Assembly (NCBI GenBank): GCA_038877255.1
Contig: JAVYWZ010000011.1
Location: 1 to 24,725, forward strand
From: Candidatus Micrarchaeaceae archaeon
GTDB lineage: Archaea; Micrarchaeota; Micrarchaeia; Micrarchaeales; CABMGC01
Direction: 5' to 3'
Length of the DNA: 24,725 nt
Numbering within the stretch: the first letter of the stretch is position 1; each line of letters begins with the position of its first letter. Shown in pieces: positions 3,694 through 11,159 of the stretch. The position numbers and the translations under genes were made by a program. The notes beneath the pieces were generated by a model, which was given only the letters and a program-made list of their open reading frames with translations, ran no database searches and had not been told where the DNA came from.

Positions 3694-4080
3694 TCATGGT
3701 TTAAGCAAAACAATATGCAAAGGCTCTATTTTTAATACGACCCTGTTGCCATGCTGTCTGTAGTTCATGCCTATGTATTTTTGCGCAAGCTTGTCTATAT
3801 GCTCCTCGGCGCCTTCTTTTATAACTTCTACCACCTTTCCCCTGATGAAAAGGGCGTCGTAAGGATCGTTCATATCAAACACACTAATTGCTACGCGCGG
3901 GTCTCTAACTACATTTTTATACTTCACCCTGTCGTTTGTTGTATTTATCAATATGTAATCGCCATCTCTGTCCACCCACGTGACTGCTATGTGTGGCGAA
4001 CCGTCGCGCATAAGCGTAGCTATATTTGCAAAATTTTTGCCATCAATGAGCTTCTTTGCTTTGTCAGGTAGCGCCATCAT
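3694..4080 (-). CDS. PPOX-class (pyridoxamine 5'-phosphate oxidase-like) F420/FMN-binding split-barrel oxidoreductase
   Basis: ATLMRDGSPH...W...K.KNVVRDPRVAISV...HIDKLAQKY...RVVLKIEP pattern. Start at ATG 4080 or 4077 after AGGTAA; own TATA-like TTATAAA about 45 bp upstream. Confidence 0.85.
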   Translation of the reverse strand: MMALPDKAKKLIDGKNFANIATLMRDGSPHIAVTWVDRDGDYILINTTNDRVKYKNVVRDPRVAISVFDMNDPYDALFIRGKVVEVIKEGAEEHIDKLAQKYIGMNYRQHGNRVVLKIEPLHIVLLKP

Positions 4081-4169
4081 GATATTACCTACACTGTATA
4101 GCATATTTAGTAGAAAAATTTATAATGCAACTGCTAACCGATTTTGTATATGCAAAAGCAAAGTAACAA

Positions 4170-4244
4170 GTTTCATCGGGCGGCTTTCGCCGCCCGCAGC
4201 AGCTTTCGCTGCCCATTTCTGGGTGATGCCGGCCTTCCCGGCAA
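4170..4244 (-). ncRNA. Candidate novel structured small RNA (about 75-90 nt)
   Basis: Minus strand reads GCCGG-GAAGG-CCGGC, CAUC-A-[CCCA-GAAA-UGGG][CAGC-GAAA-GCUG]CUGC[GGGCGGC-GAAA-GCCGCCC]-GAUG, i.e. three GAAA tetraloops closed by CAUC/GAUG. TATAAAT at 4269-4263 lies about 27 nt upstream of G4242, and a U-rich tract follows. Confidence 0.7.
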
Positions 4245-4262
4245 TACTATTAGAGTATTAAG

Positions 4263-4309
4263 ATTTATATTCTTTTACTTTGCTACAAGAAACATAGCAA
4301 GATATAAAT
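4263..4309. promoter_or_regulatory. Back-to-back TATA boxes with central inverted repeat TTGCTA-N9-TAGCAA
   Basis: TATAAAT on minus (4269-4263) and on plus (4303-4309), each preceded by purine-rich BRE-like bases; inverted repeat arms 4280-4285 and 4295-4300. Confidence 0.6.
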
Positions 4310-4399
4310 ATTTTACTAAAGTAAAATAATCAGGAAAAGCGAAGCCAGCGCTATACAAAATGGCCAGCAGCAATTGCTGTTCTATTTCTGGGTGATACC

Positions 4400-4729
4400 G
4401 TGGAAGAACAACGTAAACGCGAGCTGAAAGAAGCTTTGTTAGGCAGGCAGGCACAGTTGGACAACGAACAGGAATTTATACAAGAAGAACTTGAAGAAAG
4501 CCAGCAAACAGTTGAAAGTGAAGAAGCGAAAAACCACTACGCAAGCGAAAAAGAAGAATTGCTTGACATTGCTAAAAACACAGAGCGGCTAAGGGCAAAA
4601 AACGAGAAAAGGAATGTGGAGAAGGTAGTGCACAGTTACCTATACAGAAAAACCGGCCCAAAGACATGGTATGAAATAGTGGTATATACGAATGCAAGAG
4701 GAGCAGTCTGCCAGGTAATAAAGCATTGA
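4400..4729 (+). CDS. Hypothetical 109-aa protein, acidic coiled-coil N-terminus and basic/aromatic C-terminal beta-rich segment
   Basis: GTG start 4 nt after GGGTGA SD, own TATA box, downstream hairpin; E/Q/K-rich helical sequence. No family recognised. Confidence 0.7.
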   Translation: MEEQRKRELKEALLGRQAQLDNEQEFIQEELEESQQTVESEEAKNHYASEKEELLDIAKNTERLRAKNEKRNVEKVVHSYLYRKTGPKTWYEIVVYTNARGAVCQVIKH

Positions 4730-4731
4730 TT

Positions 4732-4751
4732 GAGGCGGCGCATGCCGCCTC
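4732..4751. terminator. GC-rich hairpin GAGGCGGC-GCAT-GCCGCCTC between convergent genes
   Basis: 8-bp perfect stem 2 nt after the stop codon of 4400-4729 and just before the end of the convergent transcarbamylase gene. Confidence 0.55.
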
Positions 4752-4783
4752 TCGGCTCGCACTTCCACGGTATTATGCTCGTT

Positions 4784-5797
4784 TCAGGCAAGCAGCGCGA
4801 GCAGCGCAGCCCTTACATAAAGCAGGTTTTCTGCCTGGTCGTATATCACGCTGCGGGCACTATCCATAACTTCATTATCTGCCTCTTGGCCACGGAACAC
4901 TGGAAGCACGTGCGTTATTATCGCATTACTGCTCATTCTGTCTACAAGCTTCTGGGTGAGGCGCCAATCCTTGTATTGCTCATGAAGCTTTACTTCGTTG
5001 TCGGAGCCGAACCTGTTCATGCCCGAAGTCACACATGCATGGCTGGCCCAGCTCCTTGGAAATACTACATCAGCGCCATCTAACGCTGAGCCCATGTCGT
5101 GCATTATTTCGAGCTCTGTTCCGGCTGCTTCTGCATTGGCCCTTGCCTGATCAACAATCCTTTCATCAAGATCGAAGCCTTGAGGGTAAGCCAAAACGAC
5201 ATGCATACCAAACTTGCTTGCAATTAGCATCTCGTCTTGCACGCTGCCCCAGCTCCTTACATGATTGCTGTAGGCCCAGCTTATCACATATTTTTTGTTC
5301 TTGTAATTGCCTTGCAGTTTTTCGTCGATAGTAAGCATGTCCGCAATTGCTTGCGTAGGATGGTACATATCGTCTGCCATGTTAATGACAGGAATATTGG
5401 CGTGCTTTGCGTACTCGCGTATCAACGCATCTCCAGCCCCATAAACATAATCAACTGCTTCTTCGAGAATGCGTATGCCGAGCACGTGGCCCAAACGCTC
5501 ATACATGTGCGCAGTATCTGCAATGCTCTCGCCTTCAGAGCCGCGCGTAGTCTTGAAATCTATGAATTGGGCATGGCCGCCAAGAAGCGTTGCCGCAGAT
5601 TCGAAGCTTGATCTTGTTCTCGTACTCGTATTGTAAAAGAGCATGAACATTGTCTTGTTCTTGAAAAGCTCAGGCACATTGCCAAGGTATTTCATGCGCT
5701 TTATCTCCTTTGCAGATTCTATTACAAATTTGAGCTCTTCAAGGCTCCAATCCTGAGTTGAAATAAGATCCTTTCCAGAAATGTTTATTGCGGACAT
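4784..5797 (-). CDS. Transcarbamylase (OTCase/ATCase superfamily), resembling the knotted YgeW/ArgF'-like group; substrate uncertain
   Basis: STRTRSSFE carbamoyl-phosphate motif, HPTQAIAD, ISWAYS, ADVVFPRSW, HVLP (HCLP equivalent). Start at ATG 5797. Confidence 0.85.
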   Translation of the reverse strand: MSAINISGKDLISTQDWSLEELKFVIESAKEIKRMKYLGNVPELFKNKTMFMLFYNTSTRTRSSFESAATLLGGHAQFIDFKTTRGSEGESIADTAHMYERLGHVLGIRILEEAVDYVYGAGDALIREYAKHANIPVINMADDMYHPTQAIADMLTIDEKLQGNYKNKKYVISWAYSNHVRSWGSVQDEMLIASKFGMHVVLAYPQGFDLDERIVDQARANAEAAGTELEIMHDMGSALDGADVVFPRSWASHACVTSGMNRFGSDNEVKLHEQYKDWRLTQKLVDRMSSNAIITHVLPVFRGQEADNEVMDSARSVIYDQAENLLYVRAALLALLA

Positions 5798-5865
5798 TTT
5801 GTCACAGAAATAATTGCACAATAAGCAATAAGATTCTTGCAGCTGGCTCGTTTTTGGGTGGTATT

Positions 5866-7458
5866 TTGAAAAACGAAATAGTGATTGGAAATGTTGTAAA
5901 AGAGCTTAAACTGTGCAGAGGGATTTTTGACCGCAGGCTAAGGTGGCGCTGGAAGCGAAGGCATATGCTAAAGCTGAAGATAAGCCCAAGCAATGCAATG
6001 AATAGAAACATTGTAATAACAGGGCAGACAGGCACAGGCAAAAGCAGCGCGTGCAAAACCATAGTTAAGGGCCTTGCTTCACTTGGCTATTCTCTTTTGA
6101 TTCTCGACTTCCACAATGAATACATAGGCCTTGCAGGCGAGATAGGCGTGAAGGTATATGATGCAGACATGCTGCAGATGGACATTATGCAGCAAGATGG
6201 CAGTAATGAGGAAAAGGCTGCAGACGTTGCAGAGACTTTGAGAAAAATACTGAAGCTTGGCTACAGGCAGTACAACGAACTATATAAACTCGCATTGTAC
6301 ACTTATTCTGTTTGCGAAAGAACAGGAAAAGAGCCGAGCATTGCCCAGCTGCTTTACTCGCTTGCCGTGTTTAGCAAAAACGCAAAGGGGACAGAGGCAA
6401 ATATACTTGATGTGCTAAAGACAAGGCTTGTGCTGCTTGCGCACAAAACAAATGCGGTTCATGTTGATTTTGAAAAGACAATAGAGACAGGCGCTGTGTT
6501 CGCGCTTGCAGGAATGCACAACAATGAGACACAGACGGCATTCGCAGAATCGTTCATAAGGCGCTTGTACCAGCAAGTTCTGAGGAAAAGGCCAAGTAAG
6601 AATATCTACCTTGTTGTAGAAGAGGCAGGCAAGCTGCAAAACAGCGTTACGCTTGATAGGCTTATTGCAGAAGGCAGGAAGTATGGCGTTGGCATAATAG
6701 CAATAGCGCAGCGCGCAAAGGCAATAAGCAGCGAGATAAGGAGCAACGCAGAGCTTTTCATTGCCTTTTATCAGAGAGAGCCTGAGGAGCTTAATTACTT
6801 GACAAACATGCTTGCAGCAGGAAACGAGCTAGAACGCTTCATAGAAGTAAAGAAGGCGCTTAGGAGCCTGCAAAGGGGCACTGCGCTCGTACTTAGGAAT
6901 GGCAACATAGAGATGGCAAGGTTCAACACCACTACGACAAGGCAAAACTGGGAATACACAATAATGCATATTTCAAAGAAGCCAATAAGCAGAGAAGAAT
7001 TGCTTGATAAGTTAAGTCAATGTAGAGAAACAGAGGAGCTTATAGCCCAGAAGCTTGCAAGTAGGGAAATTAGCGAATACAGGATAAATAATGGTATATA
7101 CGCAGGCTTGTACTACATCGCAACGTCTTCTTTAAGGAACAGCGCAGAGCACGACATAATGCTAGAGCTCATAGCAAAGCACATAAGGAGCAAGGGAATA
7201 AGCTGCAAGGTGCTGAACAGGGCATACGCTCCTGACATAGTGGCTTACGAGAATGGCAAAGAAGTAGCAATAGAATATGAGACAGGCAAGAAGCAACTTG
7301 ATGACACAAAGCAGATGCTGGAAAAGAGAAAAGGCAATTATGCGAAGACAATAGTAATTGTAAACAACAGCGCCTTAGAGCGCTACAAAGCGCTAGAAAA
7401 TGGCAATATAAAAGTTATTTCTGAAAAGGAATTCTTTGAAAATCAGCAGCCCCTATAA
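5866..7458 (+). CDS. HerA/FtsK-family (DUF87) ATPase with C-terminal PD-(D/E)xK nuclease-like domain
   Basis: Walker A GQTGTGKS, ILDFHNEY, Walker B LVVEEA, EGRKYGVGIIAIAQR; C-terminal SAEH...APDIVAY...VAIEYETG. TTG start at 5866 after GGTGG SD; the ORF-track start 5788 overlaps the divergent gene. Confidence 0.85.
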   Translation: MKNEIVIGNVVKELKLCRGIFDRRLRWRWKRRHMLKLKISPSNAMNRNIVITGQTGTGKSSACKTIVKGLASLGYSLLILDFHNEYIGLAGEIGVKVYDADMLQMDIMQQDGSNEEKAADVAETLRKILKLGYRQYNELYKLALYTYSVCERTGKEPSIAQLLYSLAVFSKNAKGTEANILDVLKTRLVLLAHKTNAVHVDFEKTIETGAVFALAGMHNNETQTAFAESFIRRLYQQVLRKRPSKNIYLVVEEAGKLQNSVTLDRLIAEGRKYGVGIIAIAQRAKAISSEIRSNAELFIAFYQREPEELNYLTNMLAAGNELERFIEVKKALRSLQRGTALVLRNGNIEMARFNTTTTRQNWEYTIMHISKKPISREELLDKLSQCRETEELIAQKLASREISEYRINNGIYAGLYYIATSSLRNSAEHDIMLELIAKHIRSKGISCKVLNRAYAPDIVAYENGKEVAIEYETGKKQLDDTKQMLEKRKGNYAKTIVIVNNSALERYKALENGNIKVISEKEFFENQQPL

Positions 7459-10814: not shown

Positions 10815-11027
10815 CTATGCGCCTTTTTTGAATATGTATTCTTGTATGTCTTCCTTTGTCACGCTGACGCGCTTCTTTTTCTTGGCGTTTTTAACCGCGT
10901 ATCTGGCAATTTCTCGCGCCTTTCTTTCAAGCATCGCCGCCATTGCAGCGGCAGCATCGTCGGTTATCTTTGCGTGTGCATACCTAGCGACAATCTTCTT
11001 TATTGCTTCTTTTGACAGGCTTGCCAC
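10815..11027 (-). CDS. Archaeal histone-fold protein (HMf-like, divergent)
   Basis: KITDDA...LE...AREIA..A...A....R.SV..EDI aligns without gaps to HMfB. GTG start at 11027 after GGTG SD. Confidence 0.88.
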   Translation of the reverse strand: MASLSKEAIKKIVARYAHAKITDDAAAAMAAMLERKAREIARYAVKNAKKKKRVSVTKEDIQEYIFKKGA

Positions 11028-11159
11028 TAAAACACCAAAACGCCAATTCAGCACTCAAGATCTTCATCACTTATCAGAAAAATGCCTCATCACGCATGCA
11101 TATAATGCAAAACAAATATATATGTATATGCGCAAGACTTTACGCATAAAGATGGTAGC

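Follow-up and report, generated by a model that had tools for sequence, protein, structure and literature searches.

Several type I toxin-antitoxin pairs of bacteria have an antitoxin RNA gene divergent from the target gene, among them timP/TimR, tisB/IstR-1, shoB/OhsC, zorO/OrzO and dinQ/AgrB. As far as the cited sections on timP/TimR (PMC11295053) and tisB/IstR (PMC4147584) describe them, these enterobacterial pairs have short complementarity to the 5' leader of the target, a Shine-Dalgarno (SD) sequence hidden in the primary transcript and a pseudoknot near the 5' end; the antitoxins bind upstream of the SD, and the toxins are membrane peptides of 26-38 aa. For aapA1/IsoA1 and hok/Sok, the passages cited report that the mRNA's own 3' end silences the full-length form, that trimming activates it, and that an antisense RNA overlapping the mRNA in cis blocks the active form (PMC5416894, PMC3874152); in aapA1/IsoA1 a 3' fold-back is combined with 3' processing (PMC5416894). 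The symE/SymR pair, in the excerpts used here, consists of a 113-aa non-hydrophobic protein and a cis-overlapping antisense RNA over the ribosome-binding site (PMC4147584, PMC3874152). In arfA/brfA nonstop mRNAs a stem-loop lies in frame before the stop codon and the residues beyond it are unconserved, according to the sections cited (PMC8012679). Small RNA control coupled to defence is described, in the portions cited, for EcoRI and Eco29kI, whose cis-encoded antisense RNAs arise from reverse promoters inside the restriction-modification (R-M) locus (PMC3874152), and for CreTA, an RNA-antitoxin module in archaea in which CreA acts via Cascade on transcription of an RNA toxin (PMC8501985, PMC9458426). 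According to the cited part of PMC12390103, type I systems are reported from only three bacterial phyla, and Methanosarcina sRNA/antisense pairs at different loci were likened to such systems in the cited part of a preprint (bioRxiv 10.1101/2025.10.28.685009).

The locus described here lies in a 24,725-nt stretch of a Candidatus Micrarchaeaceae archaeon genome (contig JAVYWZ010000011.1), called the window below; its features are collected in Table 1. We lean towards reading the module as a switch that works like a type I toxin-antitoxin pair and is linked to restriction-modification. It resembles the divergent enterobacterial pairs, in particular the tisB/IstR and timP/TimR group, in its divergent genes and its 5' leader pseudoknot, but its promoters are archaeal, its small RNA (sRNA) covers the SD at the core gene (57/57 loci with a trusted start), its protein is a ∼100-aa soluble predicted dimer, and its leader is reused at R-M genes, where alone the pairing lies upstream of the initiation site as in tisB and timP. 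Silencing by the mRNA's own 3' end is shared with aapA1/IsoA1 and hok/Sok as a prediction only and at part of the loci, and the sRNA, unlike their antitoxins and SymR, is encoded by a separate gene. An arfA/brfA-type arrangement is present, given the presumed 3' ends, in 33/40 loci of the window's family (f1) and absent from the window and most loci of family f3; neither sequence nor fold connects the orphan protein with rescue factors. In contrast to EcoRI, Eco29kI and CreTA, a single chromosomal sRNA gene matches leaders at unlinked R-M loci, whose types are I, II, IIG and III. The module was not described in the titles and abstracts that we searched on Micrarchaeota antisense RNA, toxin-antitoxin and R-M regulation, on DPANN small RNAs and on archaeal pseudoknots with R-M; these covered few subscription papers, and supplementary motif tables of RNA-discovery screens could hold it.

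Table 1. Features of the module and its surroundings (positions in the window)
Feature	Position	Strand	Remarks
Predicted small antisense RNA, ∼70 nt	4177..4246	-	5' end estimated from TATA spacing
sRNA 5' hairpin GCC...GGC	4228..4242	-	Conserved; covariation at pairs 4-5
Antisense part of sRNA	4197..4231	-	Core AUCACCCAGAAAUGGG (4212-4227) mimics 16S anti-SD; pairs with 4365-4400
sRNA 3' GC hairpin GGGCGGC-GAAA-GCCGCCC	4177..4196	-	Likely 3' end/stabiliser
sRNA promoter, BRE + TATA-like	4263..4279	-	Motif
Small-gene promoter, BRE + TATA-like	4295..4309	+	Motif; back-to-back with sRNA promoter
Palindrome TTTTACT-AA-AGTAAAA	4311..4326		Between TATA and estimated start site; candidate operator
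H-type pseudoknot in leader	4338..4364	+	AGCG/CGCU, GCCA/UGGC, A-rich linker
sRNA target in leader	4365..4400	+	Includes SD GGGUGAU at 4390-4396
109-aa orphan protein gene, GTG start	4400..4729	+	Two helices + C-terminal beta-hairpin (model)
mRNA 3' GC hairpin	4732..4751	+	Just past stop here; inside frame in most relatives
3' fold-back segment	4752..4778	+	Predicted to pair with 4390-4406 + 4419-4427 (SD, start, first codons)
HerA/DUF87-like ATPase gene	5846..7458, likely start 5866	+	SD region 5846-5865 matches sRNA seed

An earlier note had read the GC-rich island at 4170-4244 as a minus-strand RNA with a 5' hairpin and a four-way junction closed by CAUC/GAUG, whose arms all carry GAAA loops. 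The minus strand does fold stably, at -42 kcal/mol and with a z of -5.2 relative to 200 dinucleotide-shuffled sequences. The 5' hairpin GCCGG/CCGGC has a pair probability of 1.0, and the three GAAA-capped arms of 4, 4-5 and 7-8 bp are present at 0.83-1.0, apart from one outer pair at 0.4. The GAAA triplet is as unusual as had been supposed: in the whole 713-kb genome 221 stems of 4 bp or more carry a GAAA cap, and no other three of them lie within 60 nt. The junction itself did not survive. Its closing helix has a pair probability of 0.001-0.006 and competes with the 5' hairpin for a base, since the first C of CAUC is the last C of that hairpin, and the minimum-energy and centroid folds are both open chains of hairpins. 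Among 61 parsed homologues, the triple GAAA loop is found only in the window's own copy, at least two GAAA loops in three, and a four-way multiloop in the minimum-energy fold in two; the loop of the 3' hairpin is of GNRA type in 30 and reads GAAA in 17. Arm 1 and the closing helix had been built from a conserved unpaired linker, and the fold and the likely role given in the note are wrong; arms 1 and 2 fall within the antisense part of the sRNA.

The proposal of a conserved, non-coding minus-strand RNA of Micrarchaeota that belongs to no annotated family has stood up. Rfam gave no match at the site (E ≤ 5), and the Rfam 15 covariance models gave none over the module in 16 homologous loci (E ≤ 1). 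ARAGORN found no tRNA at the island, in line with the note, and homologues with a covarying 5' hairpin were collected across one order of the phylum. The element is very unlikely to be an insertion sequence end either: the genome holds one full module copy, and no transposase family was found among 77 flanking ORFs. A split SRP or RNase P RNA was considered and rejected, RNase P RNA being encoded elsewhere in the genome, SRP RNA giving no match in this 92%-complete genome and no motif linking the island to either, as was a riboswitch of the upstream PPOX gene, the neighbours on that side differing between loci.

We examined 70 loci, of which the automatic parser resolved 61; the nine dropped by it show the same plan by eye, one of them degenerate. 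The plan consists of a TATA-like box, starting mostly 26-30 nt upstream of the 5' hairpin, then a GCC...GGC hairpin, an unpaired linker and a GC hairpin. The predicted sRNA length is 43-75 nt (median 52). Misplaced hairpins in a MAFFT alignment kept RNAalifold from returning a consensus, and hairpins and pseudoknot were assessed by anchored permutation instead. The 5' hairpin could be anchored without folding in 49/61 loci, and its observed pairing was matched in 0/5000 permutations. In the window the linker is AUCACCCAGAAA, which mimics the 16S tail of this genome, GAUCACCUCC. By comparison of loci, the conserved unit is a predicted TATA-driven RNA made of a 5' hairpin, an anti-SD linker and a 3' hairpin. 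An additional match to the sRNA part lies ∼100 nt from the module at G148:C9:7053-7101 and at L135:922-970, possibly a tandem sRNA copy.

A repeat scan of the window revealed an imperfect second copy of the sRNA middle at 4365-4400, which is the leader and SD of ORF 4400-4729. The SD can be taken as real, since the same genome carries the 16S tail given above. Pairing between the sRNA and the leader of the same locus comes to -27.7 kcal/mol, compared with -20.1 for leaders of other genera. Against the 1322 ORF start regions of the genome, the neighbour's start is the best partner at -53.3 (next best -43.2, mean -23.0, sd 5.6). Across the 61 loci, in which four start codons were mis-called, pairing with the own leader reached z < -2 against shuffled leaders in 60. 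The own leader was the best of all partners in only 16 loci, because many loci share one core, and ranked in the top tenth in 40. Several distant loci were fetched later and played no part in forming the pairing idea; six of them could not be parsed. In G044, G087, G043, G094 and G085b the match is kept in other letters (z -3.1 to -7.1), and it is weaker in G084 (z -1.9) and in G038 (z -1.1), where it lies further upstream.

Transitions between the two copies left G·U in 71 cases and A·C in 14, under a scoring that did not favour G·U. With one locus per genus the ratio was 36:3 (p = 3.6e-8, the genera not being fully independent). The excess of G·U over A·C fixes the strand and indicates RNA-RNA pairing, and the combination of minus copy and plus leader beats the reverse strand pair in 55/61 loci. 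This bias is the main evidence, and it points to selection acting on an RNA duplex between the minus copy and the plus leader. The orientation given in the note thus holds for the minus strand, although on other grounds: the GAAA loops are no proof of it, and the evidence comes from the promoter and the G·U bias. The role as a tRNA mimic or tetraloop scaffold is not upheld, since the conserved core is a single-stranded middle complementary to the SD region of the neighbouring gene. Base-pairing with the target mRNA, as in type I antitoxins, is what the comparison of loci indicates, and the sRNA very probably exerts antisense control of the neighbouring gene.

On the mRNA side, the palindrome between TATA and start is self-complementary at 10/14 positions or more in 34/70 loci, compared with 3.2 in shuffles; the alignment seed favoured the palindrome. 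A scan of this genome for an operator regulon came back negative. Stem 1 and the A-rich linker of the leader pseudoknot are nearly invariant across loci, and stem 2 varies in concert (GCC/GGC, GUC/GAC, ACC/GGU and GCU/AGC). Tested with one locus per genus (31 genera), stem 2 forms 3.74 bp with its own partner and 3.03 when permuted, and 0/5000 permutations reached the observed value; an earlier wide-window test had been weak (own 11.0 vs. swapped 10.3). Two tandem sRNA target sites were seen in the leaders of L057, L061, L065, L078, L084, L088, L090, L094 and L099.

The repeat scan also showed that 4762-4773 is complementary to the start of ORF 4400-4729. The 3' end is predicted to fold back over the SD and start codon at -39.8 kcal/mol, with an unpaired probability for this region of 0.10 in the full-length mRNA and 0.49 when it is trimmed to the 3' hairpin. 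The fold-back was locus-specific in 14/58 loci when scored by ungapped helices, and in 17/45 and 5/21 when scored by duplex energy with several hairpins mis-called; it is therefore common in one family and not general.

In f1, 33/40 scored loci have no stop codon ahead of the 3' hairpin; five loci were skipped for lack of a profile match, and four had been left out earlier, having no start or meeting the contig end. Within f1 a stop does come before the hairpin in the window and at four further loci, and in f3 the stop lies at the end of the protein core in 20/21. From the hairpin to the next in-frame stop the median is 66 nt, vs. 54 nt in the other frames (p 0.49). Should the hairpin mark the transcript end, the majority of f1 mRNAs would be stop-less. 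Some stop-less frames extend into the next gene: at L104, L106, P0117 and P0098 they run in frame into an endonuclease IV or HerA-like ATPase gene, so that the database entries are fusions of 400-670 aa, which are probably artefacts. In genera g4 and g5 several loci (L049, L050, L052, L111 and L112) have ACG after the SD where a start codon would be expected.

Nucleotide differences in the small ORF fall on codon positions 1/2/3 as 538/452/1088, and dN/dS is 0.06-0.40 in 34 within-genus pairs; by these measures, the orphan protein is real and under purifying selection. Its profile matched in 29/36 f1 and 34/56 f3 genomes and, in the 208 other genomes of the class, gave two borderline rows only. 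The five genomes without a match to the broader module profile R2 (see below) yielded one weak protein row. Among 1.84 billion representatives, 124 clusters were found, at least one of them spurious. The models show two helices and a C-terminal beta-hairpin (pLDDT 84). For the orthologue from G024 the homodimer score was 0.72 vs. 0.02 for the best control; the mark was attained by 20/30 solved pairs and 1/23 single chains. The dimer runs agreed in at least 79% of contacts with pLDDT of at least 66, and in the modelled dimer the two first strands pair with one another over the long helices. A homodimer is therefore predicted, with support from modelling of this orthologue. A hydrophobic 19-residue window of at least 1.6 was found in only 2/61 proteins, which are not membrane-like as a family; with a core of 85-110 aa they differ from the small hydrophobic membrane peptides of type I toxins. 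The family has a median net charge of 0 and a mean column identity of 20%.

Searches for relatives of the protein gave little. A single-sequence search returned the protein itself only; Pfam, PHROGs, PADLOC and NCBIfam gave no family common to more than one member; the PDB sequence search gave helical designs and weak rows only; ESM Atlas gave no usable match; and Foldseek found nothing at E ≤ 0.001 in PDB or BFVD. VIA-align matches with a best Z of 8.6 (rmsd 2.2, 87 aligned, long helices) and with Z 5.6 (rmsd 4.0, 86 aligned) were rejected as a common helical arrangement only, and the rows for MADS-box (E 3.4) and GnsA (E 3.2) as not significant. SymE has an AbrB-type fold, to which the orphan protein gave no match. 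None of the family or fold searches hinted at toxic activity, and whether the protein is toxic or growth-arresting is a close call that we put slightly on the doubtful side. At L095, L098, L101, L111 and L112 (genera g28, g12 and g5) the ORF behind a normal leader falls outside the family profile; these ORFs look all-helical, and the cassette may carry another protein there. At L105 (G083:C35) and L214 (G068:C13) there is a second module, whose sRNA is degenerate and whose ORF is unrelated and starts with a Cys-x2-Cys motif.

The leader also occurs alone, with the same promoter, pseudoknot and UGUUUCUGGGUG target, and with no sRNA gene upstream. Stem 2 of these pseudoknots is often flipped to GGC/GCC. 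A model of the leader-only copies (R3) found further ones in the order and none in 81 genomes outside it. The first gene after the copy is a DNA methyltransferase or R-M gene at 24/40 sites (D12, N6/N4, HsdM + HsdS, Eco57I-type, mod + res, and Vsr + C5 methylase), a HerA/DUF87 ATPase at two (in G018 and G045), another methyltransferase at one, and none or unassignable at 13. Sites unused for R3 have an R-M gene at 12/20. The own genome's leader-only copy (C10:27304-27391) precedes its only D12 methylase; leader and gene together span G000:C10:27304-28105 (L283), and the Dam-like gene runs off the contig end, with no partner endonuclease visible. The sRNA pairs with the D12 methylase leader over 15/16 nt at -28.0, which exceeds 97% of foreign sRNAs.

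In the R-M leaders the target lies ∼40-75 nt ahead of the start codon, and 21/33 parsed leaders have a UUAGC further downstream that could pair with stem 1. Given the upstream target and the UUAGC/stem 1 pairing, sRNA binding could switch the leader fold either way. The sRNA-complementary motif is kept in 20/33 leaders by a strict pattern. Where it is kept, the own sRNA pairs at z < -2 in 10/15 sites; the failing five are in G087 (two), G094, G048 and G082, four f3 genomes with drifted sRNAs. On average the own sRNA (-20.6) does no better than foreign ones (-20.0), and the target site may be kept for another reason. On balance we think that the sRNA acts on R-M leaders too.

The HerA-like gene downstream of the module has the second-best start-proximal seed match of 950 in the genome (-25.6 vs. 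a mean of -9.6), and is possibly a further sRNA target. Its homologues lie downstream on the same strand in 10/70 module loci; the nine other loci with that gene gave no clear sRNA site before it. The ATPase (5866-7458, plus strand) presumably carries a C-terminal nuclease-like motif.

BLAST against 61 related genomes turned up four clear homologues, and the layout is the same in each. With profile R1 the module was matched in 124/151 genomes of the order (E ≤ 0.01), mostly once, the weakest matches being promoter-only. The broader profile R2 matched 24/24 and 41/46 genomes of the two main families, and elsewhere in the phylum gave five weak partial matches (E about 1e-4) among 80 genomes; judged by match range, about 61/70 R2 matches are full modules and the rest leader-only or partial. 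A leader pattern run over 185,579 species genomes gave 54 matches, 35 of them with the module by R1, in records titled Micrarchaeota or a subgroup (29), uncultured archaeon (4) or Marsarchaeota (2). This distribution also suggests Micrarchaeota as the phylum of the window itself. No bacterial-titled record among the pattern matches had the module, apart from a partial match on a 1-kb contig, and viral contigs held no exact match to the pattern. L146, L165, L172 and L179, archaeal-titled matches without a full module, are probably more leader-only copies. Flanking genes differ among loci and the protein tree mostly follows the genera (61 rows, weak deep support), so the module appears to be inherited vertically with local shuffling. 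Multiple copies and an adjacent transposase, as expected of IS200/IS605 or MITE ends, were not found in the genome and flanks scanned.

Comparison across genera shows the frame of the switch: two TATA promoters placed back to back, a predicted RNA with a hairpin on either side of its linker, and a complementarity of linker and leader in which both partners change in concert. A newly made mRNA would not be translated while its 3' end covers the SD and start codon, and trimming to the 3' hairpin would open it. The 5' pseudoknot may stabilise the mRNA or aid ribosome loading, and the sRNA would capture the opened SD. The soluble dimeric protein would harm or arrest the cell when made, which would explain why it is silenced in three ways. 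For most members of the family a trimmed, stop-less mRNA could add a fourth brake through ribosome rescue. A short-lived sRNA would be lost, for instance, when a virus or host-cell loss shuts transcription down; this loss would free the small protein and reset the methylase and restriction leaders together, giving a defence or dormancy switch.

Two readings would dispense with the antisense RNA as we describe it. A stand-alone four-way-junction RNA, acting through its three GAAA loops as a scaffold or tRNA mimic, would suit the stable fold and a loop triplet unique in the genome, but with a closing helix below 0.01 and with the triple loop and four-way fold confined to 1/61 and 2/61 homologues we give it hardly any credence. 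The second reading takes the resemblance of 4197-4231 to 4365-4400 for a relic DNA duplication or for the ends of a mobile element, with the hairpins as terminators or transposase sites and no RNAs pairing; this would be in keeping with two copies that are direct repeats on DNA, with similar GC hairpins at either end of the module and with neighbours that vary between genera. Such a relic is expected to show equal G·U and A·C, against the observed 71:14, and the two copies change in step throughout the order. Together with the single copy per genome, the 77 neighbours free of transposases, the absence from viral contigs by pattern and a tree mostly by genus, this largely refutes the relic, which we consider very improbable.

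The other two readings keep the antisense RNA and change what it serves. The protein could be a regulator rather than a toxin, a dimeric DNA/RNA-binding controller of methylase and restriction timing in the manner of the C proteins of R-M systems, with the dimer binding the palindrome or the pseudoknot leaders and the sRNA setting the protein level. The homodimer support, the palindrome in 34/70 loci and the promoter and pseudoknot shared with R-M genes agree with this, as does near-universal, single-copy, vertical retention in genomes of 0.5-1.3 Mb, which together with the tree would suit a housekeeping regulator better than a selfish pair. A net charge of 0 is not what such a factor would lead one to expect, sequence change as fast as 20% column identity is odd for a fixed-site factor, and the palindrome count is seed-biased, with R-M promoters lacking a clear copy and no regulon in this genome; we regard the regulator as rather unlikely though deserving of weight. 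Improbable to a further degree is a leader that senses a ligand such as SAM or SAH and gates methylase and restriction genes, the antisense RNA being a second input mainly at the small gene. We take the pseudoknot topology to resemble preQ1-I or SAM-II type riboswitches; a compact H-type pseudoknot with invariant linker adenines, SAM-using enzymes behind 25/40 leader-only sites and the alternative UUAGC/stem 1 fold, typical of switches, would all suit a sensor. Against it, no Rfam riboswitch matched in the window or the 16 homologous loci, the letters of stem 2 and the loops change freely, which a ligand pocket would not do, and the sRNA-complementary motif is retained in many R-M leaders.

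Returning to the toxin-antitoxin-like switch, its widest form would be an order-wide defence regulon in DPANN archaea, in which one vertically inherited anti-SD sRNA gates both a conserved toxic dimer, whose mRNA is stop-less in most lineages, and, in trans, incoming R-M systems of four types that share the promoter-pseudoknot-target leader. We consider this extended form less likely than not. If true, archaea would have their first type I toxin-antitoxin-like system, and no host sRNA before it would have plugged into unlinked R-M loci. Nearly all genomes of the order keep the module even though they are reduced and host-dependent, so it probably serves the life cycle, as dormancy off the host or as defence. 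To our knowledge, S1 protein and RNase III are not expected in archaea, and we know of no archaeal tmRNA. The module offers testable cases of antisense control in archaea without Hfq or RNase III, of stop-less mRNAs as a programmed feature where tmRNA is lacking, and of host timing of newly acquired R-M systems. Both the sRNA and the pseudoknot leader are new RNA motifs that Rfam could take up, and the leader marks R-M genes in these genomes.

In the window the module is flanked on the minus strand by a PPOX-family gene (3694-4104), a carbamoyltransferase gene (4784-5821) and the ORF at 568-2199, which we take from its motif to be a pilin-like protein with a class III-type signal peptide; pilin-like genes adjoin the module in genus g4 too. 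Archaea_SRP RNA gave no match in this genome, in which RNase P RNA is present, and divergence, loss or a gap could explain this, the genome being 92% complete. At 11047-11096 on the minus strand lies a likely archaeal C/D box sRNA with boxes C, D', C' and D; it matched Rfam sR5 at 25.9 bits (E 0.025, under the gathering score), and a quick search with its D guide returned only the self-match. The candidate is situated just upstream of a histone-like ORF (10815-11054).
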